The translations under genes were made by a program, and so were the position numbers. The notes beneath the pieces were generated by a model. The model searched no databases. It was not told where the DNA came from and saw nothing but the letters and a program-made list of their open reading frames with translations. This document shows positions 11,410 through 57,446 of a DNA stretch of 64,000 bases, one piece after another. Source of the DNA: an uncultured Microthrixaceae bacterium (GTDB lineage: Bacteria; Actinomycetota; Acidimicrobiia; Acidimicrobiales; Acidimicrobilacustridaceae); contig CAWEJD010000003.1 of NCBI GenBank assembly GCA_963809335.1, positions 1,592 through 65,591 of the forward strand, given 5' to 3'. Every line of letters begins with the position of its first letter. Within the stretch, counting starts at the first letter, position 1.

Positions 11410-11443
11410 GCCCTTCGGCACCGAATCGGCGCCGATTCGGTGC
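11410..11443. repeat. palindromic repeat copy, right arm truncated
   Basis: GCCCTTCGGCACCGAATCGGCGCCGATTCGGTGC, followed directly by AGGTTGACAGAAC. Confidence 0.85.
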
Positions 11444-11500
11444 AGGTTGACAGAACGCGCGGTCCGCCCCGAGAGCGCCGGTCAGGTTGACAGAACATCG

Positions 11501-11532
11501 CGACGAATCGGTACCGAATCGTCGCCGAGGGG
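11501..11532. repeat. palindromic repeat copy, left arm truncated
   Basis: CGACGAATCGGTACCGAATCGTCGCCGAGGGG, preceded by CAGGTTGACAGAAC. Confidence 0.75.
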
Positions 11533-11583
11533 CATCGCGGGCACTTAGGGTGGTGGCTCGACCGGCGAACTCGGGGTGGGCTG

Positions 11584-11982
11584 ATGGCGATCTGGACCCG
11601 GCGAGCGGGCGGCGCCGATTCGGTGAGCCCGATCGAGCACCAGGTGATCGACGACCTCGCCGCGCCGGGCGCCGATGCCGACGCCCTGATCGCGGAGACG
11701 CTCGCCGAGGCACGCACCCACGCCAGGGTGGCCCGCAACCGGGCCGACGAGGTCGTGATCGGGTTCACGCTCGGTGCCGAGGTCGACGCCCTCACGACCG
11801 ACATCGCCCGATTCGAGCGCGGCGGGGACGATCGGGCGGACCTGCTGGCGGTCCGTGAGCTCGATGCCCGGGCCCGCCACCTGGGCAACGAAGCCCTGGC
11901 TCAACAGCGCAAGAACGGCGTCCGGACCGTCACCGGCCTGGCCGGGATCTACCTGAGCACCGAACCGCCGCGGGAGCGGTGA
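11584..11982 (+). CDS. hypothetical protein (N-terminus overlaps a repeat fragment; start uncertain)
   Basis: Intact 132-aa ORF with strongly G/C-biased third positions. Residues GADSV derive from a half copy of the palindromic repeat. An alternative start is GTG near 11623. Confidence 0.45.
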   Translation: MAIWTRRAGGADSVSPIEHQVIDDLAAPGADADALIAETLAEARTHARVARNRADEVVIGFTLGAEVDALTTDIARFERGGDDRADLLAVRELDARARHLGNEALAQQRKNGVRTVTGLAGIYLSTEPPRER

Positions 11983-13470
11983 TCAGGCGGACGGCCGGGC
12001 CCGCACGTCGTGCAGCGCCACGGCGATCGGTTCCTCGCTCGACAGGGGCGTCGGGAGCCAGACCGTGAGACCCGACGAACCGGCTTCGAAGCGCAGGGTC
12101 TCGCCGTCGAGGCCCGTGACCCTCGTCGTGGGCGTGGCCTCGACCTCGGCCAGCCGGACCTCGCCGTCGCCGGGCGGGGCCCCCTCAGGCCGGCGGATCA
12201 ACGCGAACACGGTCGTGTCCCGGGCCGTGTAGCGGACCTCGGCACCACCCGCACCGCCACCGCCATCCACACCACCGCTCGGGTGCACCCACGGCCGGGT
12301 GGCGAACAGGGCGCCGCCCACCGAATCGGTGAAGGTGGCGAGCCAGTCGAGGCGCCGGGTCTGGGCCTCGGCGATGGTCGCATCGACACCCCTCGGCCCG
12401 ACGTTCAGCAGCAGGTTGCCGCCCTTGGCCACGATGTCGGCCAGCGACCACACCAGCTCGGCCCGCCCGAGGAACAGCTCCTCGCGGGACGCGTCGTTGT
12501 GGCCGAAGCTGCGGTCGATGCCACGGACGCACTCCCAGGGGGTCGGCTGCACCGAGTCGAACACCGTGTACTCGGGCGTGCGGACGTCGAACATCGGCGG
12601 CTTGGGCGGGACGATGCCCTTGTCCGCCGCCGCGGACCGGGCCGCCAACCGGTCGAGCATCCGGCGGGCCGGTGGTGTGCGGGCCAGCTCCCACGCCGGT
12701 GACCACGGCATGAAGCGGTCGTTGACCACGCCGTCGGGCACGGCCCGGTAGTACGACTCGAGCATCGTTGCGAGTCGGGCGGCCGGCGCCGGCCACGAGA
12801 TGTCGTTCCACAGCACGCTGGGTCGGTAGCGCTCCACGAGCTCGCCGACGTGGGCCTCGGCATAGTCGACGTACTCCCCGCGGGGCTGGGCGGCCAGCAG
12901 GTCGCTGAAGGTGCCGATCGGCCGGTCGTTGAACGTCCAGTCGAGCCCGCCCGAGTAGTAGACGCCGAAGCGCAGGCCGACCCGACGCACCGCATCGGCC
13001 AGCTCGCCCACGACATCCCGCGAGCTGTGGAAGCCGGGCACGTGGGGATTGGGCACGTCGGTGGGCCACAGGCAGTAGCCGTCGTGGTGCTTGGTCACCA
13101 GCACGACGTAGCGGGCGCCGGTGGCCGCGAACCGCGCCGCCCACTCGTCGGGGTCCCAGGTGGTGAGCCCGGCCTCCCAGTCGGCCGCGAAGTCACGGTA
13201 GGGCCGGTCGCCCCAGACCTCGGCGTGGTGCTGCGCCGCCGGGCTCTCCGGGAACCGCAGCGAGTTCTCGTACCACTCGGCGTAGGGCGACCAGGCCATG
13301 GCGTGGGGATCGTTGCGGGCCATCAGCTCGCCGATCTCGACGTCGACCGGGGCGAAGGCGGCGACCGAGGCCGGCGTCCAGTGGACGAAGATGCCGAGCT
13401 TGGCGTCGCGCCACCAGGCCGGGACCTCGTGGTGGCGTACGCGGCGGATGCGTCGGCGGTCGGACGGCAT
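11983..13470 (-). CDS. alpha-L-fucosidase (GH29)
   Basis: Intact 495-aa ORF with the GH29 signatures KLGIFVHWTPASV, YVVLVTKHHDGYCLWPT and VLWNDISWP. Confidence 0.85.
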   Translation of the reverse strand: MPSDRRRIRRVRHHEVPAWWRDAKLGIFVHWTPASVAAFAPVDVEIGELMARNDPHAMAWSPYAEWYENSLRFPESPAAQHHAEVWGDRPYRDFAADWEAGLTTWDPDEWAARFAATGARYVVLVTKHHDGYCLWPTDVPNPHVPGFHSSRDVVGELADAVRRVGLRFGVYYSGGLDWTFNDRPIGTFSDLLAAQPRGEYVDYAEAHVGELVERYRPSVLWNDISWPAPAARLATMLESYYRAVPDGVVNDRFMPWSPAWELARTPPARRMLDRLAARSAAADKGIVPPKPPMFDVRTPEYTVFDSVQPTPWECVRGIDRSFGHNDASREELFLGRAELVWSLADIVAKGGNLLLNVGPRGVDATIAEAQTRRLDWLATFTDSVGGALFATRPWVHPSGGVDGGGGAGGAEVRYTARDTTVFALIRRPEGAPPGDGEVRLAEVEATPTTRVTGLDGETLRFEAGSSGLTVWLPTPLSSEEPIAVALHDVRARPSA

Positions 13471-13559
13471 CGCCGGACCCTACTGAATCGGACCTGTCCC
13501 GGTCGGCCCGGTCGGCCCGGTCGATTCGGCTGCGGGAGGGGTCGACGGCGCCATCTACG

Positions 13560-18928: not shown

Positions 18929-20159
18929 ATGGATCTCTCGGTACGACAGCTCGGGCCCGACGACTTCGACGCCGCCATGCGAACCGATGAGGCCGCCTTC
19001 TCGGAGGTGGTGAAGCCCGAGCACCGCGAGCAGGCCCGGGCCCTGATCGACTGGTCGCGGATGTTCGGCGCCTTCGACGGTGCCGAGCTGTGCGGCACCG
19101 CCGGCGCCTACGCGTTCGAGGTGACGTTGCCGGGCGGGGCGGTCGTGCCGGCATCGGGGGTGACCGCCGTGGGCGTGCTGCCCACGCATCGTCGCCGAGG
19201 CGTGCTCCGATCGCTGATGGATCGCCAGCTCGAGGATGTGGCCGAGCGAGGGGAGTGCGTCGCCCTGCTGACCGCGTCGGAGGCCACGATCTACCGGCGC
19301 TTCGGCTACGGCGTGGCCTGCGTGTACCGGTCGGTCGAGGTCGACCGGTCCCGTGCGTCGTTCGTGACCCGTCGCCCGGACGTCGGATCCGACCGGCCGA
19401 TGCGACTGCTGTCGCCGGACGAGGCCGTCGAGCGGGCGCCCGCGTGGTTCGACGCCTACCGCCGCTCGTGGCCGGGCGAGGTCAGTCGGCCGGCGTCGTG
19501 GTGGCCGTACGTGTTCGGCGAGAAGGAGACGTGGCGGGGCGGCGGGCCGCAGTTCGTGGTGGCCGTCGAGGACACCGACGACCGGCCCGGCGGGTACGCG
19601 ATCTACCGGGTCACCGACGGTCCGGGTCCTGGCGACCGCAAGCTCCGGGTCCGCGAGCTGGTGGCCGCCGACGAGGGAGTGCGCGAGCAGCTGTGGCGGT
19701 ACCTGTTCGGGGTCGACCTGGTCACCGTCATCGACGCCGACCTCGGCGTGGACGACCCGCTGCGCTGGCGGCTGACGGACTTCCGCGCCATGCGGGTGAC
19801 CGGGGAGCGCGACTTCCTGTGGGCCCGGGTGGTCGATCCGGTGGCCGCCCTCGCCGCTCGGCGCTACGAACGGGAGGCCGAGCTGGTCGTCGAGGTGATC
19901 GACGACACGCGGCCCGGCGGTTCCGGTCGCTACTCGGTGGCCGGTGGCCCCGGTGGCGCCACGTGCGAGAGGACCTCGGCGGCGGCCGGACCTGGCGATG
20001 GACGTGGCCGAGCTCGGGTCGCTGCTCCTCGGCGGGGCGTCGGCGCGGGTGCTGGGCGCCGCCGGTCGGATCGACGAGCGCTCGCCCGGGGCGTTGGCTG
20101 TCGCCGACGGCTTCTTCGGCTCGACCTCGGCCCGCCCGGCCTGCCTCACCCAGTTCTGA
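18929..20159 (+). CDS. Eis-like GNAT N-acetyltransferase; one frameshift as sequenced
   Basis: About 410 aa with a GNAT core (VGVLPTHRRRGVLRSLM) and an Eis-type C-terminal extension. Frame switch near 19975. Confidence 0.72.
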
Positions 20160-20164
20160 CCCGT

Positions 20165-20204
20165 CCTTTCGGCACCGAATCGGTACCGATTCGGTGCCGA
20201 AGGG
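20165..20204. repeat. palindromic repeat copy (archetype)
   Basis: CCTTTCGGCACCGAATCGGTACCGATTCGGTGCCGAAGGG contains a perfect 34-bp palindrome centred on GGTACC. It lies between the convergent Eis-like and MATE genes. Confidence 0.92.
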
Positions 20205-20222
20205 CGGCGAAGAGGGGGGCGG

Positions 20223-21560
20223 TCAGCGCTCGGCGCCGGTGATGGCCCATCCGTGACCGGCCCACCGAATCCCGAGCGTCACCATCCGAGCTGCGATGAA
20301 CACGAACAGCGCGGCCCACAGCCACCCGATCCCGAGACCGAGCACAGGGACGGCGAGCGCGCACGGCAGGAACGCGACGAACGACACGACCATGGCCCCG
20401 GCGAGGTACCGCAGGTCGCCGGCGCCGATGAGCAGGCCGTCGAGCACGAACACCACACCGCAGACGGGCTGCATCAGACCGACGAGCACCAGCACGAACG
20501 CGGCGACACCCGCCACCGAGGCGTCGCTCGTGAAGACGTGGGGCAGCACGGTTCGCAGCGCCAGGGTCGCGACGCCCAGCACGACGCCGGCGACGACGCC
20601 CCACTCGAGCATCCGCCGCCCCGACCGCCGGGCCGAGGCCTCGTCGCCCGCGCCGAGGTAGCGGCCGATCAGCGCCTGGCCGGCGATGGCGATGGCGTCG
20701 AGCGTCAGGGCCAGGAAGCTCCAGATCTGGAACGCGATCTGATGGGCGGCCAGCGCCACCGTGCCGAGGCGGGCGGCGACCGCGGTGGCGACGAGGAACG
20801 AACCCTGGAGCGCGGCGGTCCGGACGAACAGGTCACCGCCGACCACGGCCAGCCGCCGCAGCGTCGCCCCGTGCGGGCCCAGTCGCACCGAATGGGACCG
20901 CACGGCCCGTCCGACCCAGATGACGTAGACGGTGGCCGCTCCGATCTGGGCCACGACCGTGGCCCACGCCGACGCCCCGATGCCGAACCCGAGGCCGTAG
21001 ATGAGCACCACCTCGAGCACGAGGTTGCCGACCGACGACACGACCGCCACCACCAGCGGGGTCGTGGTGTCCTGCAGCCCGCGCAGGTACCCGGTGCCGG
21101 CCAGCACGACGAGGGTCGCCGGCACCCCGAACAGGCTGATCCGCAGGTACACCAGCGCGTTGTCCCGCACGGCTCCGGTCGCCCCCAACAGCTCGACCAG
21201 CGGCACCGCGAAGATCTGCCCGAGCACGACCAGCAGCACGCCGACCACGAAGGCCAGCCACACGCCCTGCACCGCCTGGTGCGCCGCCCGCTCCTCGTCG
21301 CCGGCACCCAGCAGTCGGGCCACGGCCCCCGTGGTTCCGTAGGCCAGGAAGATGAACAGCGAGTAGCCGATGAGCAGCACGCTGCTGGCGATGGCCAGGC
21401 CGGCGAGCTGATCGGTCCCGAGGTGCCCGACGACCGCGGTGTCGGTCAGGATGTAGAGCGGCTCGGCGACCAGCGCCCCCAACGCCGGGAGCGCGAGGCG
21501 CAGGATCTCGGTGTCGTGGGGATCCCGGCGGAACGGTGAGCGCTCGACCGGGTTCAGGCC
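20223..21560 (-). CDS. MATE family efflux transporter (DinF-like); start codon not resolved
   Basis: Twelve-TM MATE pattern (EILRLALPALGALVAEPLYILTDTAVVGHLG). There is no ATG or GTG upstream of the conserved N-terminus before the stop of the preceding gene at 21554. Confidence 0.78.
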   Translation of the reverse strand, partial: GLNPVERSPFRRDPHDTEILRLALPALGALVAEPLYILTDTAVVGHLGTDQLAGLAIASSVLLIGYSLFIFLAYGTTGAVARLLGAGDEERAAHQAVQGVWLAFVVGVLLVVLGQIFAVPLVELLGATGAVRDNALVYLRISLFGVPATLVVLAGTGYLRGLQDTTTPLVVAVVSSVGNLVLEVVLIYGLGFGIGASAWATVVAQIGAATVYVIWVGRAVRSHSVRLGPHGATLRRLAVVGGDLFVRTAALQGSFLVATAVAARLGTVALAAHQIAFQIWSFLALTLDAIAIAGQALIGRYLGAGDEASARRSGRRMLEWGVVAGVVLGVATLALRTVLPHVFTSDASVAGVAAFVLVLVGLMQPVCGVVFVLDGLLIGAGDLRYLAGAMVVSFVAFLPCALAVPVLGLGIGWLWAALFVFIAARMVTLGIRWAGHGWAITGAER

Positions 21561-22297
21561 ACGTCCTGTCGGCTCAGCCGCCGCGTGGTGTAGGCGAGGG
21601 CGACGAAGGCCACCACGCAGGGCACCACCCAGCGCCACGGGGCCGAGATCTGGGCCAGCCGTAGCGTGACGCCGGTGACCGACGACAGCGTCGACCGGCC
21701 GTAGGACCGCACCGCCAGGCGGGCCGCGGTCGAGTTGCCGTTGGCGACGAACCCCTCCCAGATCAGGATGTAGAGCAGCCCCCAGGGCAGGGCCCGCTTG
21801 ACCCGGAGCCCGAGCGCCACGAAGAGCCCCGTGTAGCCGACCATCGAGATGGTCACCCCGGCGACGGTGCCGACGACCAGCGAGCCGCCGGCCCCGGTGA
21901 GCGACGCGGCGATGATCAGCGGGATCGTCACCAGGGGCCACGTGACGGTGAACGAGGCCAGCGCCGCCGCTCCGGCCAGCTTCCACCGGGCCACGGGACG
22001 CAACCACAGGTAGACGAGCGTGCTGTCCTCGTTGAGCTCGCCCAGCGACGCCGACGCGAACACCAGCGTCGCCACCGGCACCAGCACCGACAGGCCCAGG
22101 CGGTCGATGAAGAAGGTGCCGTCGCGGATGGGATCGAAGACGTCGGCGTGCCCGATGGCGAACCCGACGATCACCGCGACCAGGCCCATGGCGCTCAGGC
22201 TGAGCACTCGGGCCCTGGTCACCTGGGTGCTGAGCATGAGGCGGTACAGGGCGACGAACGCTCCAGGCGTCGGCGTCCGGGTCGTCGAGGCGCTCAT
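21554..22297 (-). CDS. ABC-2 type transporter permease
   Basis: 247-aa polytopic ORF. Its ATG at 22297 overlaps the stop of the upstream ATPase gene (ATGA). Confidence 0.7.
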   Translation of the reverse strand: MSASTTRTPTPGAFVALYRLMLSTQVTRARVLSLSAMGLVAVIVGFAIGHADVFDPIRDGTFFIDRLGLSVLVPVATLVFASASLGELNEDSTLVYLWLRPVARWKLAGAAALASFTVTWPLVTIPLIIAASLTGAGGSLVVGTVAGVTISMVGYTGLFVALGLRVKRALPWGLLYILIWEGFVANGNSTAARLAVRSYGRSTLSSVTGVTLRLAQISAPWRWVVPCVVAFVALAYTTRRLSRQDVA

Positions 22298-23256
22298 CGG
22301 CCGACCAGGTAGCGGAAGACGCTCTCGAGGTCGTCGTCGAGCGGGCTGACCTCGTAGAGGTGGGCACCGACCGTGCGGGCCACCTCGGCCACCGCCCGAC
22401 GGAACTGGCTCACCTGATCGGTCTCGAGCACGGCGCTGTGCTCGTCCTCGAGCTCGAGACCCATGACGACGCCCCGGTCGAGCAGGCCGCCGGCGACGGC
22501 CCGAGCCCGGTCGCTGCGCACGCGGATGCGGTGGGGGCGATCGTCCATGAGCTCGCGGATGGCCCGGAAGTCGCCCTCGGCGGCCAGTCGACCCTGCACC
22601 ATGACCAGGACGCGCGACCCGAAGCGCTCCACCTCGTCGAGCACGTGGCTGGACACGATCACGCACTTGCCGGCCGCTCCGAGCCGCTGGAACAACTCGA
22701 TCATGTGCAGCCGCTGGCGGGGGTCGAGCCCGGTGAGGGGCTCGTCGAGCACGATCACGTCGGGGTCGTGGACGATGGCCTGGGCCACCTTGACCCGCTG
22801 GCGCATCCCCTTGGAGTAGGTGCTCGTCGGCCGGTTGTCGTCGACCGGCATCTCCACTACATCGAGCGCGGCCACCGCCGCCCCGTCGGGATCGTCGAGG
22901 CCCTGCAGCACCCCGGCGAGGCGGACGAACTCGAAGGCCGTCAACGTCTCGAACACGACCTCCTGCTGGGGGACGAGCCCGATCCGGCGGGTCAGGGCCA
23001 GGTCGCGTCTCGGGTCGCCGCCGAGGATCCGCACCGTCCCCCGGGCCGGCGCGGTGAGCCCGCACAGCATCCGGAGCATGGTCGACTTCCCCGCCCCGTT
23101 GGGCCCGAGCAGCGCAGTGACCCCCCGGTCGACCCGGAACGACACGTCGGAGACGGCCACCAGGTCGCCGAACCACTTCGACGCGCCGGTCACCTCGATC
23201 GGCCAGGGCGGCGCCCCGATTCCCGCGCCCGCCTCGGCCTCGGCCACGGCGCTCAC
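22294..23256 (-). CDS. ABC transporter ATP-binding protein
   Basis: Walker A GPNGAGKST, signature YSKGMRQR and Walker B VIVLDEP. Proposed start is GTG 23256. As sequenced it is in frame with the upstream permease. Confidence 0.85.
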   Translation of the reverse strand: MSAVAEAEAGAGIGAPPWPIEVTGASKWFGDLVAVSDVSFRVDRGVTALLGPNGAGKSTMLRMLCGLTAPARGTVRILGGDPRRDLALTRRIGLVPQQEVVFETLTAFEFVRLAGVLQGLDDPDGAAVAALDVVEMPVDDNRPTSTYSKGMRQRVKVAQAIVHDPDVIVLDEPLTGLDPRQRLHMIELFQRLGAAGKCVIVSSHVLDEVERFGSRVLVMVQGRLAAEGDFRAIRELMDDRPHRIRVRSDRARAVAGGLLDRGVVMGLELEDEHSAVLETDQVSQFRRAVAEVARTVGAHLYEVSPLDDDLESVFRYLVGR

Positions 23257-24165
23257 CGGCTCACGCCGGATGTGCTGGTAGCGGAACCGGACGAAGATCG
23301 CGCACCCGACGGTGATGACGAGGTAGGCCACGACCATGGTGGCGGTGGAGGTGTGGGCCGCGCTCGGGGAGATGAAGCCGGGGCGTTGACCGTAGAGGCG
23401 CCCCACCAGCTCCATCGGCAGGTAGGGGAGGTTCACCACGAACAGCGACGGCGACGAGCCGGTGTTGACGAGCGTCTCGCCGACCACGGCCGATCCGATC
23501 ATCACGAGGACGAACGCGGCGGACGCCGCGGCGCGCCGGGTGGTGGTGCTGGCGATGGCGAGCGAGAGCGATCCGGGGAGGGCCGCGACGATGACGCCGC
23601 CGACGATCACCCTCCACAGCACGCCGACGAAGGCGGTGAAATCGGCGGGCCCGGCGCCGGCGATGGTGCGAGCGACCAGCATGAAGACCGGCGGGCCGAG
23701 GGTCACCAGCGAGAGGAGGAACGCGACCGCCGCGGCTTTGGCGATCAGATAGGTGTCGCGGTCGAGCGGCGAGGCCAGGTAGAGCCCGAGCAGGCCCGAA
23801 CGCCGATCGGTGCACAGGGCCTCGGGCACGGCGAGGGCGGCGAAGATGAGGATGGCGGCCCACACGTAGAGGTAGAACTCGGCGTAGGACGGGATGACCT
23901 GGTTGATGTCCACGCCGTTGCGCTGGAAGCGCTCTTTGAGCAGGGCGGCGATGCCCACGAAGGCGATGGCCGGCACGTAGGCGATGAAGATGGCGCCGAA
24001 CGGGAGGATCTTGTTCCAGAACGTGCGCTTCAGGCCGAGGACGCGCTGGACGGTGTGGCGCACGAGGCTGCGCATGGCGCCCCGCGCCCCCCGGCGGGGA
24101 CCGTCGTAGGAGCGGTAGCCGCGCTCGAGGATCCGGGCGCCGCCTCCGCCCGCAGCCAAGGTCAC
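23253..24165 (-). CDS. ABC-2 type transporter permease (reads through into the ATPase as sequenced)
   Basis: N-terminal ~300 aa of the 623-aa track ORF, with six predicted TM segments. Its GTG start at 24165 overlaps the stop of the upstream ATPase (GTGA). Confidence 0.62.
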
Positions 24166-25130
24166 GTGCCGACCTCCAGGAACACGTCCTCGAGGCTGAC
24201 CGTGCGGTTGGTCAGGCGACGGAGCCCGGCGCCGCTGTCGGCCAGCGCGTCTCGCACGATGTCGTAGAGCTCGTCATCGGCCGACCCGCCGGCGCTGGTG
24301 ACCACCAGCCGCGAGCCGTCGATCGCCACGTGGTTCCCTCTGGCCCGCAGGACGTCGGCCAACGCCTCGGCCTGCTCGTCGACCTCGACCAGCAGCCCGC
24401 GGTCGGCCCCCGTGAGCTCGGAGATCGGCCCCGAGGCCACGACCTCGCCGCCGGCGAGGATGACCGCGTTGTCGCAGACCCGCTCGACCTCCTCCAGCAG
24501 GTGCGAGGACAGGATGATGTCGATGCCGAACTCCGTCCCGACCCGCCTGATGAGCGCCAGCATGTCGTCGCGCTGCACGGGGTCGAGGCCGTCGGTCGGC
24601 TCGTCGAGCAGGACGAGCTGGGGGTCGTGGGCGATGGCCTGGGCCAGCTTGACCCGCTGGCGCTGCCCGGTCGACATGGTGCCGATGGGACGGAAGCGCT
24701 CCTCACCCAGCCCGACCTGCCAGAGGGCGTCGCTCGCCCGGCCGGTGGCCTCTCGGTGGGGGAGCCCGTGGACCTCGGCGATGTGGCGGACGAGGTCCTG
24801 GGCGGTGGTGTCGGCCGGCAGGGTGTGGTGCTCGGGGGAGTAGCCCACGCGTTCACGCACCGCCGCCCCGGCGTGCACCGGGTCGAGCCCGAGGACGGCC
24901 AGCGTGCCCTCGGTGGGGCGGTGCAGACCGAGCATCATGCCGAGCAGGGTGGTCTTGCCGGCGCCGTTGCTGCCGAGCAGGCCGGTGACGCCACGGTGGA
25001 TGGTGAAGGTGGCGCCGGAGAGCGCGGTGACCGAGCCCCAGCGCTTGACGATGCCCTGACCGACGACCACCTCGTCGGCGCGCGGCGAGCGTTCGATCGA
25101 TGCCCCGCTCGGATCGCTGTGGTCGGCCAT
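24162..25130 (-). CDS. ABC transporter ATP-binding protein
   Basis: Start is ATG 25130 (MADHSD). Carries Walker [10 protein letters not shown], signature MSTGQRQR and Walker B LVLLDEP. Confidence 0.85.
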
Positions 25131-25157
25131 CGCGGGACGAGCGTAACCTCTGACCCC

Positions 25158-26855
25158 ATGAGCGACGGCCCACACGACAACACCATGAAGCCTCGATCGT
25201 GGGAGGTGACCGACGGGTTCGAGCGAGCGCCGGCCCGGGCCATGCTGCGCGCCGTCGGCATGACCGACGACGACTGGGACAAGCCCCAGATCGGCGTCGC
25301 CTCGTCGTGGAACGAGGTCACGCCCTGCAACCTGCCGCTCGACCGCCTGGCCAAGCAGGCCAAGGAGGGTGTGCGGCGGGCCGGCGGCTTCCCGTTCGAG
25401 TTCAACACCATCGCGGTGAGCGACGGCATCTCGATGGGTCACGAGGGGATGCGGGCCTCGCTCGTGAGCCGGGAGATCATCGCCGACTCGGTCGAGACGG
25501 TGATGCACGCCGAGCGCTTCGACGGGCTCGTCGCCTTCGCCGGCTGCGACAAGTCCCTGCCCGGGCATGCTCATGGCCGCGGCCCGGCTCAACCTGCCAG
25601 CGGTGTTCCTCTACGGCGGATCGATCCTGCCGGGCCACCGCAACGGCGTGGCGCTCGACATCACCAGCGTGTTCGAGGCGGTCGGTGCGTGCGCGGCGGG
25701 CACGCTGACCGAGAACGAGCTCGGTGAGATCGAGATGCAGGCCTGCCCCACCGAGGGATCGTGCGCCGGCATGTTCACGGCCAACACCATGGCGTCGATC
25801 GGCGAGGCGCTCGGCATGTCCCTGCCCGGGTCGGCGTCGCCCCCGGCCGTCGACCGGCGCCGGGACGACTTCGCCCGAGCCAGCGGTCAGGCGGTGATCC
25901 GCCTGCTCGAGCTGGGCCTGCGGCCCCGTCAGATCATGACCAAGGAGGCCTTCGAGAACGCCATCGCGGTCACGATGGCCCTCGGTGGTTCCACCAACGC
26001 GGTGCTGCACCTCCTGGCCATCGCCAACGAGGCCCGGGTCGATCTGCAGCTCGACGACTTCAACCGGGTCGCGGCCCGGGTGCCCCACATCGCCGACACC
26101 AAGCCACATGGCCGCTACCACATGAGTCGACATCGATCGCATCGGGGGCATCCCGGTGGTGATGAAAGAGCTGCTCGACGCGGGCCTGATCCACGGCGAC
26201 TGCCTCACGGTGACCGGTCGCACGGTGGCCGAGAACCTGGCCGAGATCTCCCCGCCACCGCCGGACGGCGCGGTCGTGCACCGGCTGTCGGACCCGATCC
26301 ACGCGCTCGGCGGCATCGCGGTGCTCACCGGCTCGCTGGCGCCCAAGGGAGCGGTGGTCAAGATCGCCGGCATCGACTTCGACCGGTTCGAGGGCGTTGC
26401 CCGGGTGTTCGACGGCGAGGCGGCCGCCATGGAGGACATCCTCGCCGGCCGGATCAACGCCGGTGACGTCGTCGTCATCCGCTACGAGGGCCCCAAGGGC
26501 GGCCCGGGCATGCGCGAGATGCTGGCCGTCACCGGTGCGATGAAGGGCGTGGGACGTGGCGGCGACGCCGCGCTCATCACCGACGGCCGGTTCTCGGGCG
26601 GCACGCACGGGTTCTGCATCGGCCACGTCGCGCCTGAGGCGGTCGACGGGGGGCCGATCGCGTTCGTGGCCGAGGGCGATCGCATCGTGATCGACGTGGT
26701 CGCCCACACCATCGACCTGCTCGTCGATGAGGCCGAGCTCGAGCGCCGTCGAGGCGAGTGGAAGCTGCCCGAGCCCCGCTACACGACGGGCGTGCTGGCC
26801 AAGTACGCCGGCGTTGGCCCAGGGTGCCGAGCGGGGGGCCATCACCGAGGCCTGA
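25158..26855 (+). CDS. ilvD: dihydroxy-acid dehydratase; frameshifted as sequenced
   Basis: Motifs [22 protein letters not shown], and [21 protein letters not shown]. Frame switches near 25560, 26135 and 26815. Stop TGA at 26853-26855. Confidence 0.92.
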
Positions 26856-26871
26856 CCACGTCGGTGACGTC

Positions 26872-26913
26872 GCCCCTCGGCGCCGATTCGGTACCGAATC
26901 GGCGCTGAAGGGC
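26872..26913. repeat. palindromic repeat copy
   Basis: GCCCCTCGGCGCCGATTCGGTACCGAATCGGCGCTGAAGGGC, 17 nt after the ilvD stop. The inner 9-mers are in the flipped arrangement. Confidence 0.9.
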
Positions 26914-26979
26914 CGGCGGGTCCACGGGTGGGGGCTTTCGGGTTGCCGAACCTGGGCCGCGCATGGCACGCTGTCCCCC

Positions 26980-27018
26980 GTGAACCCCACTGTCTCGATT
27001 CTCGTGGTACTCACCTAG
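26980..27018 (+). CDS. putative ilvB leader peptide VNPTVSILVVLT (12 codons)
   Basis: GTG AAC CCC ACT GTC TCG ATT CTC GTG GTA CTC ACC TAG. Six of the 12 codons are Val/Ile/Leu, several of them A/T-ending codons that look rare here. It is followed directly by two hairpins and a T-tract, 170 nt upstream of ilvB. Confidence 0.6.
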   Translation: MNPTVSILVVLT

Positions 27019-27050
27019 CGCACGCCGTCTCTTCCCCTGCGTGCGCACCC

Positions 27051-27087
27051 TCGACCTCCCCAGCGGGAGGTCGATTGCGTTTTCGGG
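27051..27087 (+). terminator. intrinsic terminator of the ilvB attenuator
   Basis: TCGACCTCCC-CAGC-GGGAGGTCGA forms a 10-bp perfect stem, followed by TTGCGTTTTCGGG. An 8-bp hairpin GCGCACGC(N13)GCGTGCGC at 27018-27046 precedes it and starts in the leader stop codon. Confidence 0.6.
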
Positions 27088-27104
27088 ATCGGGTCCTGCC
27101 CGTC

Positions 27105-27152
27105 CACCGAATCGACACCGAATCGCCGCCGCACCGAATCCGCACCGAATCG
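27105..27152 (+). repeat. four direct CACCGAATC half-site repeats in the ilvB 5' UTR
   Basis: CACCGAATC occurs at 27105, 27116, 27132 and 27143. The motif equals the inner half-site of the palindromic repeat. Confidence 0.85.
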
Positions 27153-27189
27153 CCGCATCCGCAGAACCGCACCCCGTGAGGAACCCACG

Positions 27190-28931
27190 ATGAAACTCGA
27201 TGGTGGACAAGCCCTGATCAAGAGCCTGGAGATGGAGGGGGTCGAGACGATCTTCGGCCTGCCCGGCGGCGCCATCCTGCCGGTGTACGACCCGATCATC
27301 GATTCGCCGATCCGCCACATCCTCGTGCGCCACGAGCAGGGCGCCGGCCACATGGCCGAGGGCTACGCCCACGCCACCGGTCGTCCGGGTGTCGCCATGG
27401 TGACGAGCGGACCGGGCGCGACGAACATCGTCACGCCGCTCGCCGACGCCTACATGGACTCGGTGCCCATGGTGGTCATCACCGGGCAGGTCCCGACGTC
27501 GGCGCTCGGCACCGACGCCTTCCAGGAAGCGGACATCACCGGCATCACCATGGGGATCACCAAGCACAACTTCCTGGTCACCTCGGCCCAGGACATCCCT
27601 CGGGCGATCCGAGAGGCGTTCCACATCGCCACGACCGGCCGTCCCGGCCCGGTGCTGGTCGACATCCCGAAGGACATCGTCGACCCGCAGAACCCCAACT
27701 CGGCCATGGAGTGGTACTGGCCCGACTCGGTCGACCTGCCCGGCTACCACCCGGTCACCAAGGGCGATCCCGCGATGATCCGCAAGGCGGCCGAGCTGAT
27801 CCTGGCGTCGGAGCGACCGGTGATCTACGCCGGCGGCGGCATCCTGAAGGCCCGGGCGGCCGAGGCGCTGCGCGCGCTGGCCGAGCTGTGCGACATCCAC
27901 GTCGTCACGACGCTCATGGCCCGAGGGGCGTTCCCCGACGACCACCCGCTCTGCCTGGGGATGCCCGGCATGCACGGCAACTACACCGCGGTGACCTCGA
28001 TGCAGGAGGCCGACCTGCTGATCGCGCTCGGCAGCCGGTTCGACGACCGGGTCACCGGCAAGGTCGGCGACGTTCGCGCCCGAGGCCAAGATCATCCACG
28101 TCGACATCGACCCGGCCGAGCTGGGCAAGGTCCGCCGACCCGACGCCGGCATCGCCGGCGACTGCCGGCTCGTCATCGAGGAGCTGATCACGGCGATCCG
28201 TGACCTCGGCGGGCCGAACGCCCAACCCGACCGCTCGGCGTGGAAGTCGCCGCATCAGCGGTTGGCAGGAGCGGTTCCCGCTCACCTACGAGATGAGCGA
28301 GCCGGGCGAGCTGCTGAAGCCGCAGTACGTGCTCGAGACCCTGCGGGACAACACCCCCGACGACTGCATCGTGGCGTCGGGCGTCGGCCAGCACCAGATG
28401 TGGACGAGCCAGCACTGGAAGTTCAACCACCCCTACACGTGGGTGAACTCGGGCGGCCTCGGCACGATGGGCTTCTCGGTGCCGGCGGCCATCGGGGCCA
28501 AGGTCGGTCGTCCCGACCGGATGGTCTGGGCCATCGACGGCGACGGTTGCTTCCAGATGACGGCCCAGGAGCTGGTCACCGCGGCGAGCGAGCGGATCCC
28601 GGTCAAGATCGCCATCCTCAACAACGCCTACCTCGGCATGGTGCGCCAGTGGCAGGAGATGTTCTACGAGGAGCGCTACTCGGAGGTGTACCTCTCGCCC
28701 GATCTGCCGGACTACAAGATGTGGGCCGAGGCCATGGGCTGCATCGGCATGCGGGTCGAGTCGCCCGAGGAGGTCCTGCCCGCCATCGAGAAGGCGAACG
28801 AGATCGACGACCGGCCGGTCGTCATCGACTTCCGCACCGATGCCCGGGAGAAGGTGTACCCGATGGTCCCGTCCGGGAAGTCGAACAGCGAGATCGTCGT
28901 CGATCCGTCCCAGGGCGAGGGAGGTCGATGA
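27190..28931 (+). CDS. ilvB: acetolactate synthase large subunit; frameshifted as sequenced
   Basis: [34 protein letters not shown] and the ThDP motif [16 protein letters not shown]...IDGDGCFQM. Frame switches near 28070 and 28255. RBS GAGGA at 27177-27181. Confidence 0.93.
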
Positions 28932-29467
28932 CCGTGGCGACCTCCAAGCACCACATCCTCACCGTGCTGGTCGAGAACAAGCCCGGCGTGCTCACCCGGG
29001 TGGCCGGTCTGTTCGCCCGACGCGGCTTCAACATCGTCTCGCTGGCGGTGGCGCCGACCGACGACGAGCGGTTCAGCCGCATCACGGTCGTCGTCGACGT
29101 GGAGTCGGCGCCGCTCGAGCAGGTGGTCAAGCAGCTCGACAAGCTGGTCAACGTGGTGAAGATCACCGAGCTGGCCCCCGGCGATTCGGTGCAGCGCGAG
29201 CTGCTGCTGGCGACGGTGGCGGCGACGCCGGAGATCCGGGGGCAGATCATCGAGTTGGTCGGCGTGTTCGAGGGTCGTATTCTCGGCGTCGGCCCGGACG
29301 AGCTGACCATCTCCCTCGATGGATCGCCGGAGAAGGTGAACGACTTCGAGCAGATGATCAGGCCCTACGGCATCGTGGCGCTGCAGCGCACCGGGCGGGT
29401 CGCGCTGCCCAAGCTCGGCCGACGTCAGGCTCCGCAGTTGCGCGGTGTCGACGCCGAGGCTTCTTGA
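28928..29467 (+). CDS. ilvN: acetolactate synthase small (regulatory) subunit
   Basis: Intact ORF. The ATG overlaps the ilvB stop (ATGA). ACT-domain sequence [28 protein letters not shown]. Confidence 0.92.
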
Positions 29468-30613
<1,146 letters not shown>

Positions 30614-30663
30614 CGGCTCGGCCCTCCACGGCATGAATTCCGACTAGACGGGTCAACTTTTAA

Positions 30664-30676
30664 CGACCTAAGGTCG
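30664..30676. promoter_or_regulatory. palindrome overlapping the putative metY -10 box
   Basis: CGACCT-A-AGGTCG contains TAAGGT (30669-30674). TAGACG lies 18 nt upstream (30645-30650). The element sits in the AT-richer spacer between ilvC and metY. Confidence 0.4.
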
Positions 30677-30715
30677 CTTCGCGCACTGATCGCCACCGCC
30701 GCGGAGGAGCTAGCC

Positions 30716-32032: not shown

Positions 32033-32069
32033 CGAGCTGGCCGGTGCAGGCCACCACCGCTGAGGATCC

Positions 32070-32731: not shown

Positions 32732-32895
32732 GGATGCAGCTCCCTCGTGGTGCGAGTGCTGGAGGGCGCCGTCGTGGCTGCCGAGCGTCGGGTCAAGTCT
32801 GCTCGGGGGGTGTGACAGTGAAGGCCCACGGTCCGGTCGATTCGATCGGTCGAAGGCCGGCTGCCTGAGGGGCTCCAACCACTGACGATGTTGCT

Positions 32896-32937
32896 GCCCT
32901 TCAGCACCGAATCGGTACCGAATCGGCGCTGAAGGGC
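32896..32937. repeat. palindromic repeat copy
   Basis: GCCCTTCAGCACCGAATCGGTACCGAATCGGCGCTGAAGGGC. The 10-bp outer arms are perfect and the inner 9-mers are direct. Confidence 0.9.
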
Positions 32938-32990
32938 GACCGGAAACGTGGGTGGACGGTCGGTTGAGGGACGGCCCGACGATCCAGCCG

Positions 32991-34727: not shown

Positions 34728-34734
34728 GCTCGGG

Positions 34735-36451: not shown

Positions 36452-36579
36452 GCTTCCCCCTGTAGACCAACTCGTCTGGACCAGCTCGTCGAGCCGCCCA
36501 TCTGGTGTGGCCCAGGGGCAGTCTGCCCGATGGAGCCGGCCGACCGCTCCGCCTGGAGCAGCCGTTGTCCGGAGGGCGA

Positions 36580-37715
<1,136 letters not shown>

Positions 37716-37760
37716 CGCTGCAACTATCGCGGCCGAGCCCACTCGTGACGAAATCGGTTC

Positions 37761-37800
37761 CCCTTCGGCACCGAATCGGTATCGATTCGGTGCCGAAGGG
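37761..37800. repeat. palindromic repeat copy in the serC/aspC divergent region
   Basis: CCCTTCGGCACCGAATCGGTATCGATTCGGTGCCGAAGGG. Confidence 0.92.
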
Positions 37801-37866
37801 CTCCGCCACGCCGGTGGCGGGGCGCTAGCGTCGGCTCGCCACCCCCGACCCCGGAGCATCCACCGC

Positions 37867-39089: not shown

Positions 39090-41179
39090 GTGACCAACGA
39101 CGCCCCGTACGGCTCCTGGCCGTCGCCGATCACCGCCGACGCTGGTGGTCGCCGGCGCCGTCGGACTCGGCGACTGTCGCGTGGGCGACGACGACGTCTG
39201 GTGGTCCGAGTCCCGACCCGAGCAGGCCGGCCGGATCGCCGTGGTGCGCCACCGTCCCGGCGGGGGGACGGTCGAGGCTTTCGGCGAGGACTTCTCGGCC
39301 CGCACCCGGGTGCACGAGTACGGCGGCGGCGCGTGGTGGCTGCACGACGACACGCTCTTCTTCACCAACGCCGCCGACCAGCGCCTCTACCGGGTCGATC
39401 CCGACGCCGAGCCCGGGATCGTTCGCCGATCCCGTCGCCCTGACGCCGGAACCGGCCGTGCCGATGGCCGACCGCTACGCCGACGGCGTGCTCACCGTCG
39501 ACGGCCGCTGGGTGATCTGCGTCCGCGAGCGCCACGACGGGCCCGACGTGCGCAACGAGCTGGTGGCCATCGAGGCCCAGCGCGGCGGCGAGCCGGTCGT
39601 CGTCGTCTCCGGGCCCGACTTCGTCGCCGCCCCCGGGTGAGCCCCGACGGGCGCCGGCTGTGCTGGCTGCAGTGGAACCACCCCGACATGCCGTGGGACG
39701 GCACCGAGCTGTGGGTCGCCGAGCTCGACGACGCCGACGTCCTCGAGGTCACCGACGCCCGCCGGATCGCCGGCAGTCGCACCGAATCGATCACCCAGCC
39801 CGAGTGGCACCCCGACGGCAGCCTCTGGTTCGTGTCCGATCGCACCGACTGGTGGAACCTGTACCGAATCGGTGCCGATTCGTTGCCGAAGGGCGCGGCC
39901 CGCACGGTCGCGCGGCCGCACCGCGGGCCCGGACGTGGCCGCCCCGACCCGGCGCCCGAGCCCACCCGGATCGGTACGATCCAGGGCGACATCGGCGTCC
40001 CGGCCTGGGTGTTCGCCCAGAGCCGCTACGCCTTCCTCCCCGACGGCCGCGTGGCTGTCGCCTACACCGCCGACGGCGTCGACCACCTCGCGGTGATCGA
40101 CGACCCGGCGCGACCCGCCGACGACCCGGGCGCGACCCGTCCGACCCGGCCTCACCGGCGGTCGTCGATGTCCCCACGCCGTTCACCACGCTCTCGTCGT
40201 TGCGGGCCTACGGCCACGGCCTCGCCATGATCGCCGGCTCGCCGACCTCCGAGCCCGTCGTCGCCCTCGCCGACCTGCCCCCGCACGGCCACGCCACCAT
40301 CGCCGCGGTGCAACCGGCCCGCGACCTCGGCCTCGACCCGGCCTGGTTCTCCGTCCCCGAGCCGCTCGACGTGCCCACCACCGGCGGAGCCGTCACCCAC
40401 GCCCTCTACTACCCGCCGACGCATCCCGAGGCCCACGGCCCGAGCGACGCCGCGCCGCCGCTGCGTCGTGATGATCCACGGCGGTCCCACGTCGGCCGCC
40501 CGGCCGCAGCTCAGCCTCGCCCTGCAGTTCTGGACCTCCCGGGGCTTCGCCGTCGCCGACGTGAACTACCGGGGCAGCTCCGGCTACGGCCGGGCCTACC
40601 GCGGGCCTGCTCGACGGGCAGTGGGGCATCGCCGACGTCGACGACTGCGTCGCCGTCGCCGAGCACCTGGTGGCCGAGGGTCGGGTCGACCCCGACCGAC
40701 TGGCGATCCGCGGCGGCAGCGCCGGTGGCTTCACCGCCCTGTGCGCCCTCACCTTCCACGATCGGTTCGCGGCCGGCGCCAGCCTGTACGGCGTCGCCGA
40801 CCTCGAGGCCCTGGCCCGCGACACCCACAAGTTCGAGGCGCGCTACCTCGACTCACTCGTCGGGCCCTACCCGGCCGAGCGCGACCGCTACGTCGAGCGG
40901 TCACCCATCCACCACGTCGACCAACTCGACCGCCCGGTCATCGTGCTCCAGGGGCTCGAGGACGAGGTCGTCCCGCCCGCCCAGTCCGAGATGATCGTCG
41001 ATGCCCTCCGGGCCAAGGGCGTGCCGGTCGCCTACCTCGCCTTCGAGGGAGAGCAGCACGGGTTCCGCCAGGCCGCCAACATCCGGCGTGCGCTCGAGGC
41101 CGAGCTGTACTTCTACAGTCGGGTTTTCGGCTTCGAACCCTGGGATCCGATCGACCCGGTGCCGATAGACAACCTCTGA
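39090..41179 (+). CDS. S9 prolyl-oligopeptidase-family serine peptidase (beta-propeller + alpha/beta hydrolase); frameshifted as sequenced
   Basis: N-terminal YGSWPSPIT, propeller repeats, nucleophile motif GGSAGGF, and C-terminal FEGEQHGFR. At least five frame switches. Contains a repeat copy at 39861-39894. Confidence 0.85.
39861..39894. repeat. palindromic repeat copy inside the S9 peptidase CDS (5' arm degenerate)
   Basis: GTACCGAATCGGTGCCGATTCGTTGCCGAAGGGC, translated in frame as [11 protein letters not shown]. Confidence 0.8.
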
Positions 41180-47470: not shown

Positions 47471-48173
47471 ATGGGATCGAGTGTAAGCGGGGTCGGGGTC
47501 GTCGACAAGGCGATGGCCATCCTCGGAGCGGTCGAGCGGTCACCGAGGTCGCTCGGGGAGCTGGTGGAGGCGACCGGCTACTCGCGGGCGACCGCGCACC
47601 GGCTGGCGGTGGCACTCGAGGTGCACGGGCTGGTGCGGCGCGACGAGGACGGACGCTTCACGCTGGGGGTGCGCCTCATCGCGCTCGGTCGGGCCGCCGC
47701 GGAGGGGATCCCGCTGGCCGAGGCGGCGCTGCCGGCGCTGACCGCGCCTGCGCGACGAAACCGGCGAATCGGTGCAGCTGTACGTGCGAGAGGGGGATCG
47801 GCGGGTCTGCATCGCCGCCCTCGAGTCGCCGCACGGCCTGCGGACGATCGTGCCGATGGGGGCGTCGTTGCCCCTCGACGTCGGCTCGGCCGGCGCCATC
47901 CTCTCGGTGCCCTTCAGCACCGAATCGGTACCGAATCGGCGCCGATGGGCCGAGAGCGTGGGGGAGCGGGAGGCGGGGGTGGCCTCGGTGAGCGCCGGCG
48001 TGCTCGACCCCGACGGCACCGCGGTCGCCGCCGTCAGCGTCTCGGGGCCGATCGAGCGCACGACCCGCCAGCCCGGTGCCCGCTACGGCGACGCCGTCGT
48101 CGCCGCCGCCCGCAGCATCGAGCAGGCCGCCGGTCTGGCCGACGGCGGCCCGGCCGCCGCACCGCCGTCGTGA
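47471..48173 (+). CDS. ltbR: IclR-family regulator, LtbR-like by position (divergent from leuCD); one frameshift and an in-frame repeat copy
   Basis: N-terminal wHTH (VDKAMAILGAVERSPRSLGELVEATGYSRATAHRLAVALE) and effector domain ESVGEREAGVASVSAGV. Frame switch near 47755. The repeat lies at 47909-47950. Confidence 0.78.
47909..47950. repeat. palindromic repeat copy inside the ltbR CDS (14 codons, in frame)
   Basis: GCCCTTCAGCACCGAATCGGTACCGAATCGGCGCCGATGGGC, translated as PFSTESVPNRRRW. Confidence 0.88.
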
Positions 48174-52168: not shown

Positions 52169-52248
52169 CCGCCGTCGTCGCGCCACGGACGGGATCCTAG
52201 ATGCCTGCCAGGTTGACGAACGCAGACCGCGCCAGCACACTGTGCGGA

Positions 52249-52290: not shown

Positions 52291-52320
52291 CGCGCACCAC
52301 GTGGTGGTGTGCGCTCCTGA

Positions 52321-52350: not shown

Positions 52351-52359
52351 CTAGGGAGC

Positions 52360-53370: not shown

Positions 53371-53382
53371 GGGGATCATCCC

Positions 53383-55899: not shown

Positions 55900-55910
55900 G
55901 CTGGGTGGCG

Positions 55911-56484
55911 ATGGCTGCTCCGGAGTACGTCCCCCATCCCCCGACCGACAAGCCCCGCGTCTACGAGTCCCCGCCGTGGGACGGCGAGGCGTGGCTGGCC
56001 GACCGACCGGGCGAGCTCGTCCGGGCGCCAGCCGCTCGGGCCCCGGCTGGGCTACCCCGGCCCCGACCAGGGCTACGCCATCAAGCTGGCCAACGGCTTC
56101 GACGACCGGCTGGTGCTGGCCCCGGGGGAGCACGCCGAGGACGTCAAGGCCGGGTGCACCGCGGTGGCGCTCAAGCGGGCGTCGCTGTTCGGCCGGGCGC
56201 CGATGGTGCACGACCTGACCGCCGCGTTCACCATCTGGGGCTTCCTCGCCGAGGCCGACGCCGAGCTGGTGCGGCTGCGCAAGCCGCTGTTCGAAGAGGT
56301 GTCGAGCGTCCACCACTACATGGAGCGCCGCAAGGTCGCCGATCTCGTGCCGCAGGCGGTGCTGCGGCTGCGCCACCAGGAGATCGCCAAGATCGCGGCG
56401 CAGGACTGGCGGGCGTTCTTCAAGCGCCGCTCGGCCGCCACGCCGGCCGCAGCGCCACCCGCGCCGGCCCCCGCCGCGGGCTGA
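55911..56484 (+). CDS. hypothetical protein; one frameshift as sequenced
   Basis: Start is ATG 55911. Third positions are G/C-rich. Pieces lie in two frames, with a switch near 56025. I recognise no family. Confidence 0.5.
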
Positions 56485-56485
56485 C

Positions 56486-57344
56486 GTGCAGCGCACCACG
56501 GTCGCGGTCGACGACCCCGAGGTCGGGCCGCTCCGGTTCGACGCCGTGGTCGAGGGCGATCCCTCGGGCGAGCCGGTGCTGCTGCTGCACGGCTTCCCCG
56601 AGACGTCGCAGTCGTGGAACCACCAGGTGCCGGCGCTGGTCGAGGCCGGCTACCGCGTGGTGGCCCCCGACCAGCGGGGCTACTCGCCCGGGGCGCGCCC
56701 TGCGCAACCGTCGGCGTACCGCTCAGATCGGCTCGTGGCCGACGTGTTGGCGATGGCCGATGCGCTCGGGTATCGACCGGTTCCACCTGGTCGGTCACGA
56801 CTGGGGAGGGGCGGTCGCCTGGCAGGTGGCCGGGCGCCATCCCGATCGGTTGCGCACGCTGACGGTGATCTCGACCCCGCACCCGGCGGCATTCGGTGCC
56901 GCTCTGGCCGGCGAGGGCGGGTCGGACCAGGCGGACCGCTCGGGCTACATGGAGTTCTTCCGGACCGAGGGCAGCGAGCAGGTGATGCTGGCCGATGACG
57001 CCGGCCTGCTGAAGCTGGTGTACCTGGGCAGCGGGTTGACCGAGCAGGAGGCGGCTCCGTACCTCGAGGCCATGTCGACGCCCGAGGCGCTGGGCGCGGC
57101 GCTCAACTGGTACCGGGCGGCGGACATCACGTTGGTCGACGGGCTCGGGCCGATCGTGGCGCCGACGCTCTACATCTGGAGCACGAACGACGTGGCTCTC
57201 GGCCGGGAGGCGGCGGAGGCGACCGCTCGATTCGTCGAGGGGCCCTACCGGTTCGAGGAGCTCGACGGCGTCGACCACTGGGTGGCCGAGCACGCACCGG
57301 ATTCGGTGAACGCGCTGCTGCTCGAGCATCTCGGCGGGTCGTAG
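56486..57344 (+). CDS. alpha/beta hydrolase (epoxide-hydrolase-like); one frameshift as sequenced
   Basis: Motifs [24 protein letters not shown] and HLVGHDWGG. Frame switch near 56770. Confidence 0.8.
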
Positions 57345-57400
57345 CCGGCCGGCCACCTGGGGTGGCCGTGCCCCCGCCATCGGGGCTCATCCACCCCCAG

Positions 57401-57446
57401 CTGCCCTTCGGCACCGAATCGGCGCCGATTCGGTGCCAAAGGGCAG
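57401..57446. repeat. palindromic repeat copy (extended arms)
   Basis: CTGCCCTTCGGCACCGAATCGGCGCCGATTCGGTGCCAAAGGGCAG, between the convergent hydrolase and L,D-transpeptidase genes. Confidence 0.92.

Follow-up and report, generated by a model that had tools for sequence, protein, structure and literature searches.

The window analysed here is a stretch of 64,000 nucleotides from an uncultured Microthrixaceae bacterium of the order Acidimicrobiales (contig CAWEJD010000003.1, positions 1,592 to 65,591), and the subject of this paper is a short palindromic repeat that recurs between, and in a few cases within, its genes. The DNA has a G+C content of about 71% and gives 70–87% nucleotide matches to contigs of metagenome-assembled genomes (MAGs) of Acidimicrobiales, those of Microthrixaceae being closest. 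The genes recognized by Pfam include ilvD, ilvB, ilvN, ilvC, a metY-like gene, aminotransferases, an S9 peptidase, leuC, an IclR regulator and a leuA-like gene; the assignment of serA comes from reading its translation, with no family search behind it. An ilv/leu block of this kind is also known from other Actinomycetota. The repeat has the 42-bp consensus GCCCTTCRGCR-CCGAWTCGG-YR-CCGAWTCGG-YGCYGAAGGGC and is present in the window as seven full and five partial copies.

Copies in the window and their gene context

A search with the consensus on both strands, allowing at most two mismatches, yields seven loci, starting at 20164, 26872, 29473, 32896, 37760, 47909 and 57403, and no match in shuffled sequence. 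The inner 9-mer CCGAWTCGG occurs 19 times in the window against 1.1 expected, and is not over-represented outside the repeat copies. A hidden Markov model (HMM) trained on the seven full copies, used to score the whole window, returns 12 significant segments, with 27105–27130 and 27131–27152 scored separately. The repeat family proposed in the initial annotation is thus real. It is not an assembly artefact either, since independent metagenome contigs carry the element at orthologous sites. The proposed half-sites fared less well: 13494–13539 and 57500–57519 escape the HMM even at E=10, and 11611–11625 is only marginal (E ~0.09). The fragment at 27105–27152 does contain related sequence, but in the form of CACCGAATCG units, four of them in direct orientation, arrayed in the 5' untranslated region (UTR) of ilvB. 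The copies are listed below, with a strand where one is assigned.

11410..11443: left half of a composite copy (left arm and two core units); HMM E=1e-10
11501..11533: right half of the composite copy (two units and right arm); HMM E=3e-7
20164..20205: full copy between convergent genes (GNAT/Eis-like and MatE); consensus, HMM and fold
26872..26913: full copy starting 16 nt past the ilvD stop, upstream of the ilvB leader; consensus
27105..27152, + strand: array of four direct CACCGAATCG units spaced by 11, 16 and 11 nt; HMM E=5e-4 and 8e-3
29473..29514: full copy in the ilvN–ilvC spacer; consensus and fold
32896..32937: full copy past the stop of a minus-strand gene for a membrane protein of ~546 aa, convergent with metY; consensus
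37760..37801: full copy in the divergent spacer of class-V and class-I/II aminotransferase genes; consensus
39863..39894, + strand: partial copy (two units and right arm), in frame in the S9 peptidase/beta-propeller gene; HMM
47909..47950, + strand: full copy, in frame in the IclR (NdgR/LtbR-like) gene; consensus
57403..57444: full copy between convergent genes (alpha/beta hydrolase and YkuD L,D-transpeptidase); consensus and fold

The HMM places two of these copies at 20165–20205 and 37761–37801, and the palindrome of the 57403 copy reaches further, from 57394 to 57453. The outer arms of the two composite halves pair with each other, and the fold of 11406–11537 has a predicted energy of -66 kcal/mol; the left half sits between the stop of an amidohydrolase gene and the next gene, and has an ortholog in L145 (loci from other genomes are designated by L numbers). 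A 13-bp direct repeat, AGGTTGACAGAAC, at 11444–11456 and 11487–11499 brackets a 30-bp insert between the halves, and the equivalent in L145 has one such 13-bp segment only and no insert. The array at 27105–27152 lies between the terminator of the ilvB attenuator and the ilvB ribosome-binding site; it is kept in L183 and missing from L114.

The coding signal shifts frame within ligA, ilvD, ilvB, ilvC, serA, the IclR gene, the S9 peptidase gene and leuA (e.g. at 28070, 28250, ~42870 and ~47742), and ilvB has two 1-nt insertions compared with the intact gene of L183. Such changes in conserved genes point to an assembly rich in indels or to pseudogenes being widespread, and raw reading frames are therefore unreliable; copies were positioned relative to genes by means of intact relatives. 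The locations first given, at convergent gene ends (20165, 57401) and in a divergent promoter region (37761), agree with this placement, whereas the 32896 copy, described as lying at a co-directional junction, follows the stop of a minus-strand gene that faces metY and is thus convergent. The conserved ~546-aa gene beside it was considered as a transposase or DNA-binding protein and rejected, as no match to it was found in Pfam, NCBIfam or PDB; its product has the appearance of a multi-pass membrane protein. Other genes near this copy encode an acyl-CoA synthetase and aminotransferases.

Two copies had been placed within coding sequences, at 39861 and 47909, and both are indeed in frame. The intact 665-aa open reading frame (ORF) of L130 reads through the S9 peptidase element as ..WWNL RRIGADSALKG.., while the L099 ortholog, which lacks the element, reads ..WWNLYRVDP----TG... 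The window, L002, L048 and L240 carry these units as well, with identical codons CGA, GGT and GAT that are rare in this genome of high G+C content; both units are kept in five genomes, and one arm is lost. The IclR copy is read as VPFSTESVPNRRRW, 14 codons in place of about 10, a net gain of 4 aa that maintains the frame and leaves the downstream W-A-E-S-V residues intact, with the IclR_C domain match split around it. The IclR orthologs in L012 and L039 have no element.

Modular architecture, folding and genome-specific arms

The 42-mer can be written as gccc-T-TCGG-ca-CCGA-A-TCGG-ta-CCGA-T-TCGG-tg-CCGA-A-gggc, that is, as three TCGG-YR-CCGA decamers with a single W between them, the W bases falling at positions 5, 16, 27 and 38, exactly 11 bp apart. 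An equivalent description is that of CCGAWTCGG 9-mers linked by YR, with genome-specific arms that close a 19–21-bp stem. In 81 copies from many genomes the inner W pairs are AT in 26, AA in 24, TT in 17 and TA in 14, and the W bases flip between copies, and also between orthologous copies, while the CCGA/TCGG tetrads stay fixed. The linkers are Y-R in every copy (TA 42, CG 21, TG 9, CA 9). The three arrangements of the inner 9-mers described before are directly visible in the sequence, as is the perfect 34-bp palindrome of the 20165 copy. Three-unit arrays exist in L061, L069 and L038.

The intergenic copies of the window form predicted stems of 19–21 bp with energies of -32 to -42 kcal/mol (z -6 to -9), and 75% of cells are paired across a 90-copy alignment. 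The two copies in coding sequence fold poorly (z -2.8 for the full one, at 47909). No palindrome of more than 83% complementarity was found in the window outside the repeat family by a palindrome scan.

Such folding raises the question whether the elements are ordinary factor-independent terminators or mRNA-stabilizing hairpins that have converged in sequence, with no copying process involved. The hairpins are strong, their symmetry would suit both transcripts of a convergent gene pair, the foot lies 1–20 nt past many stop codons, and besides the ilvB attenuator the copies are the only strong palindromes in the window. However, a terminator scan of 19000–38500 detected the ilvB attenuator and none of the five repeat copies in that region, which lack a T-tail. 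Terminators of independent origin would not have a 42-bp sequence in common within a genome, or a 20-bp core across families, and divergent spacers, a 5' UTR and coding sequence harbour copies as well. Arms and cores, moreover, change in a concerted manner, as described below. We therefore consider this explanation quite unlikely.

Scanning genomes with the 20-bp core gave at least 114 loci, of which about 65 are from MAGs of Acidimicrobiales or Acidimicrobiia; among the matches listed, Microthrix, Microthrixaceae and Iamiaceae carry the core. At the Acidimicrobiales loci the core lies within extended palindromes, whereas most matches in other phyla lack the extension. A phage origin was rejected: the core was matched only twice in IMG/VR, with the extended palindrome in neither case. 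Three Nocardia species, outside Acidimicrobiia, each have one perfect 32-bp palindrome with the same core, cgacggCCGATTCGGYRCCGAATCGGccgtcg (L030 at 7337, L083 at 5920, L104 at 1846), in L083 and L104 about 68 nt past a gene of ~700 aa.

The arms, in contrast to the core, depend on the genome: GCCCTTCGGCA in the window, CCCATCGGCA in Microthrix, CGTGCGGCA in one MAG group, CCGCTCGCR in SJ307 and CCGTCGGCR in Iamiaceae/BC1.42. The outer clamp that was said to be kept is hence kept within the genome of the window, but other genomes carry different arms. Within a genome, the complementarity of a left arm to the right arms of other copies is similar to that with its own right arm, with fractions of 0.52–0.80 against 0.56–0.78 at offsets 4–7 from the core, and only 0.25–0.47 across genomes. 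Orthologous copies bear the arm type of their own genome, CCCTTCGG in the window and CCCATCGG in Microthrix. The core itself can change in the same manner. All three orthologous copies of L241 (8036, 10534 and 13964) have the variant CCGAWTCGA-YG-TCGAWTCGG (TCGA-YG-TCGA), a symmetric G:C to A:T change that is also found in L029 at 887 and in L087 at 2356; the arms of the three L241 copies differ from each other, each pair being self-complementary. An apparent inheritance of locus-specific arms at the ilvN–ilvC site (L042, L241) was rejected, as L042 is a different locus. Tandem or clustered copies occur in L097, L069, L029, L066 and L067, and at 11410/11501 in the window. Copies are thus alike within a genome and unlike between genomes, and the genome-specific arms together with the core variant of one lineage indicate concerted evolution, via gene conversion or re-copying.

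Orthologous sites and genomic position

Intact relatives allow the following comparison of sites.

11410/11501: present in L145
20164: present in L136
26872: present in L183, L051 and L241; absent from L114 and L242
29473: present in L183 and L241; absent from L114, L239 and L242
32896: present in L002, L183, L189, L202, L213, L234, L239 and L241
37760: present in L002, L202 and L239; absent from L048, L099, L097, L018, L240 and L241
57403: present in L078

Relatives of similar IlvN identity to the window differ in their complement, L242 having no copy, L240 the coding copy only, L239 two, L241 three and the window all. In Iamiaceae, copies are found at sites that are empty in the window, a single one following ilvC in L114, and a triple copy where leuB and leuD converge in L097. 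Copies are thus gained and lost at orthologous sites. Where they are retained, 16 orthologous pairs show 83% identity in the element and 68% in the flanks, compared with 62% for unrelated sequence under the same alignment scheme, and a seven-genome alignment around 32896 gives the same contrast between element and flank. Copies in conserved spacers outlast neutral DNA by far.

Of the 74 copies located outside the window, 69 lie between genes. The classifiable flanking contexts comprise 22 convergent, 14 divergent and 16 tandem pairs, so that convergent gene ends (42%) are over-represented. In 23 of 63 cases a stop codon and the hairpin foot are at most 40 nt apart, with a peak at 1–20 nt, whereas only six are equally near a start codon; copies thus favour positions from a few to a few tens of nucleotides past the stop. 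The 79 flanking genes at loci not syntenic to the window belong to 106 Pfam families without a common theme, and no transposase is among the leading families.

These data bear on the possibility that the elements are operators of a transcription factor for branched-chain amino-acid metabolism, e.g. the IclR/NdgR-like protein of the window. Copies in the window adjoin the ilvD, ilvB, ilvN/ilvC, metY, aminotransferase and IclR/leuCD genes, and among the matches in other genomes there is a strong excess of loci syntenic to this block. Nevertheless, the genes at non-syntenic loci have no amino-acid theme, several window copies lie between convergent genes or within coding sequence, and relatives with intact ilv genes, such as L242, can be entirely devoid of elements, while control of ilvB is already explained by its leader-peptide attenuator. 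An operator of this kind is very improbable. The poor fit of a widespread transcription-factor operator, noted already in the initial annotation, is in agreement with the diversity of flanking families and the share of convergent contexts.

The distribution along the chromosome appears to be uneven. Among the matches listed, 12 of the ~65 Acidimicrobiales loci are syntenic to the window, and for metagenome contigs in which true elements bear the window arm the share is 8 of 10; in the scan with this arm about 110 of the 120 matches listed were coincidental and within coding sequence. Relative to the fraction of a genome that it makes up, the region syntenic to the window has an about 12-fold excess of matches from other genomes. 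The loci behind this excess correspond to 11–58 kb of the window (L002, L012, L018, L039, L048, L051, L058, L078, L097, L099, L113, L114, L130, L136, L145, L183, L189, L202, L213 and L234). Site densities are 55 in 406 kb for non-syntenic loci, which hold almost only the copy by which each was retrieved, 15 in 73 kb for syntenic loci and 10 in 64 kb for the window. No element is present in 40 kb of the ligA region of two relatives, nor in the first 11 kb of the window. The ilv-leu block is a hot spot for the element across families.

The hot spot may have a meaning for the host. The tetrads at 11-bp intervals could form a recognition array for a putative order-wide DNA-binding protein, as part of a system for chromosome organization or insulation with a hot spot at ilvD-ilvBNC-serA-leuCD, rather than being selfish. 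This would fit the free W bases, the Y-R linkers, the non-palindromic direct arrays, the conservation above that of the flanks and the ~12-fold syntenic excess; we consider such a role unlikely.

Other candidate explanations for the repeat were rejected. Avoidance of GANTC methylation or restriction does not apply, because GAWTC is not depleted in the window and 28 of its 60 sites simply lie within repeat copies. A Xer/dif-like site or terminus region is not indicated either, the window having no dif-like sequence and no switch in GC skew.

Several further features of the window were observed. The ilvB leader encodes a 12-codon leader peptide (VNPTVSILVVLT*) at 26980–27018, followed by an attenuator terminator at 27051–27084, with a stem at 27051–27074 and then TTGCGTTTTC; leader peptide and attenuator are kept as far as Iamiaceae (L114) and L242, and we take this leader to be of a type found in other actinobacteria. 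About 80 nt from the 32896 copy, the block GGGTGTGACAG at 32808–32818 is invariant in seven genomes in a spacer that cannot otherwise be aligned, and a small ORF of 75–99 aa is called there in relatives. The sequence ACTATCGCGG at 37723–37732, just upstream of the start of the minus-strand class-V aminotransferase gene, is invariant in seven genomes including Iamiaceae, and may be the promoter of a leaderless transcript. A tRNA-Gln (CTG) at 60949–61021 is the sole Rfam or ARAGORN match in the window.

Nature of the element

Repetitive extragenic palindromic (REP) sequences of enterobacteria, also called palindromic units (PU), have species-specific consensus sequences at conserved locations of bacterial interspersed mosaic elements (BIMEs), and in E. 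coli they are both RNA hairpins and protein-binding sites. The Acidimicrobiales element resembles them in being palindromic, extragenic and 3'-proximal, with a genome-specific consensus at partly conserved sites, with gain and loss of copies, and with clusters. On these grounds we read it as a family of short palindromic repeats, non-coding and native to Acidimicrobiales, that is akin to REP/BIME, a reading to which we give a probability of about one half. Copying or homogenization would then run through a hairpin or duplex intermediate recognized by a host-encoded protein, which might read the CCGA/TCGG tetrads, almost invariant in the recovered copies. In transcripts, the stem-loop could serve as a 3'-end structure and as an exonuclease barrier, and possibly as a bidirectional terminator without a U-tail, like REPs in E. 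coli.

No match to a named family was found: Rfam scans of the window, at the gathering threshold and at E<=5, gave no match at any repeat copy, and the literature searched (on repeats of Acidimicrobiia and Acidimicrobiales, REPs of Microthrix, REP surveys and Actinomarina) contains no description of the motif, nor of any repeat family or cis-element of Acidimicrobiales. The initial comparison with REP/BIME, Correia/NEMIS and Rickettsia palindromic elements (RPEs) holds best for the first of these. As in the REPs of Enterobacteria and Pseudomonas, the palindrome is short, imperfect and rich in G+C, with a bias to gene 3' ends, and by analogy it could plausibly act both as an RNA hairpin and as a site for protein binding. 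It differs from them in its modular, 11-bp phased build, and in having a core common to at least two families of one order. Correia/NEMIS and other miniature inverted-repeat transposable elements (MITEs) are likewise small, non-autonomous intergenic repeats able to alter transcripts, but they measure 100–400 bp and consist of an internal segment between terminal inverted repeats, with target-site duplications, whereas this element is a single 42-bp palindrome, and no direct repeats flank any window copy. Some of its copies are in frame and translated (S9 peptidase, IclR), adding a net multiple of 3 nt, as is the case for RPEs; these, however, are 100–150 bp long, confined to Rickettsia and mostly intragenic, while coding copies of the present element are exceptional.

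A number of observations weigh against a REP-like nature. No Y1 transposase (of the IS200 or REP-associated tyrosine transposase (RAYT) type) was found by phmmer among 10,206 ORFs from 236 loci and the window, about 1.75 Mb, a weak test that used sequences of IS608 TnpA and the E. coli RAYT as queries. The element also lacks a polarity or an asymmetric tag of the GTAG/CGTC type as present in REPs, and the 90-copy alignment shows no conservation in the columns beyond the arms. There is no sign that copies have moved recently, all positions being shared by relatives of at least 80% nucleotide identity. Long MAG contigs of 0.4–4.7 Mb contain only 2–4 exact cores each among the matches listed, so that one copy per 6 kb, as suggested by the window, is unlikely to hold genome-wide; there are probably tens of copies per genome, not the hundreds known for REPs, and these are concentrated in the conserved ilv-leu block. 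Divergent promoter regions, in which no transcript 3' end lies, make up 27% of the classifiable contexts. The invariance of the core is partly due to the exact-core pattern used for searching. Departures from the arm consensus of a genome comprise 172 single changes, 26 compensated doubles and 17 uncompensated doubles; since most changes are uncompensated, pairing can be only weakly selected in each copy. Finally, the two central W bases do not covary (45 pairable against 45 unpairable combinations in the 90-copy alignment, 40 against 41 in 81 copies), which argues that the long hairpin is not the constraint on the core.

Together with the Y-R linkers, the 11-bp phasing and the direct arrays, the free W bases suggest that a putative protein reads the tetrads on duplex DNA, and to judge from the sequences such recognition would explain the conservation of the tetrads better than pairing in a long hairpin. 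In its pure form this leads to a different view, in which the copies are arrays of duplex-DNA sites for a putative Acidimicrobiales protein (nucleoid-associated, a global regulator or a roadblock) that would bind as dimers to the palindromic 9/10-bp units, spaced by one helical turn, the hairpin being a by-product of their symmetry. The W bases at the unit centres flip independently while the tetrads are fixed, the linkers are Y-R without exception, and the four W positions of the 42-mer are in exact 11-bp register. Non-palindromic arrays exist in the ilvB 5' UTR and in the three-unit loci, orthologous copies are conserved well above their flanks, and the S9 coding copy retains both units via rare A/T-ending codons in five genomes despite the loss of one arm, even though the protein sequence that it encodes may be what fixes it. 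On the other hand, arms that are genome-specific yet common to the copies of that genome require a co-evolving protein or copying anyway. A single protein specificity is inadequate for L241, where arms vary from copy to copy and each remains self-complementary, and many copies are situated between convergent genes or shortly past a stop codon. The analysis yielded no candidate protein. We regard a pure binding array as possible but doubtful.

Binding sites of comparable design exist. The metboxes of MetJ and the heptad arrays of the omega repressor consist of 2–5 short symmetric units in strict helical register, in direct or inverted orientation, and by analogy the phasing and orientation of the present units could be understood in the same way. 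Those arrays are situated at promoters of a defined regulon, whereas the elements described here lie mostly at gene 3' ends and have self-complementary arms. The HIP1 sequence (GCGATCGC) of cyanobacteria is another short palindrome conserved across a large clade, with a function that is still unknown (PMC5861425). It is an 8-mer that occurs about once per gene and is mostly intragenic, unlike the 9-mer of our element, which is not over-represented outside the copies.

The REP-like and the binding-array readings are compatible. In order of preference we place the REP-like nature first and a pure binding-array host system second, followed by plain terminators and then a branched-chain regulon.

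Acidimicrobiales, including Microthrix, are abundant in soil, freshwater, marine and wastewater environments, while their genetics have barely been studied. For these organisms the element is a recognizable, lineage-diagnostic motif that could help to type genomes, to locate transcript ends and to assess the quality of MAGs. Its regular build, with 11-bp units, free central bases, and concerted arms and cores, offers a clean test of what keeps palindromic repeats in bacterial genomes, and addresses the long-standing question whether their upkeep is due to a dedicated enzyme, to gene conversion or to selection for a host function. The concentration of copies in one biosynthetic block provides a specific lead.

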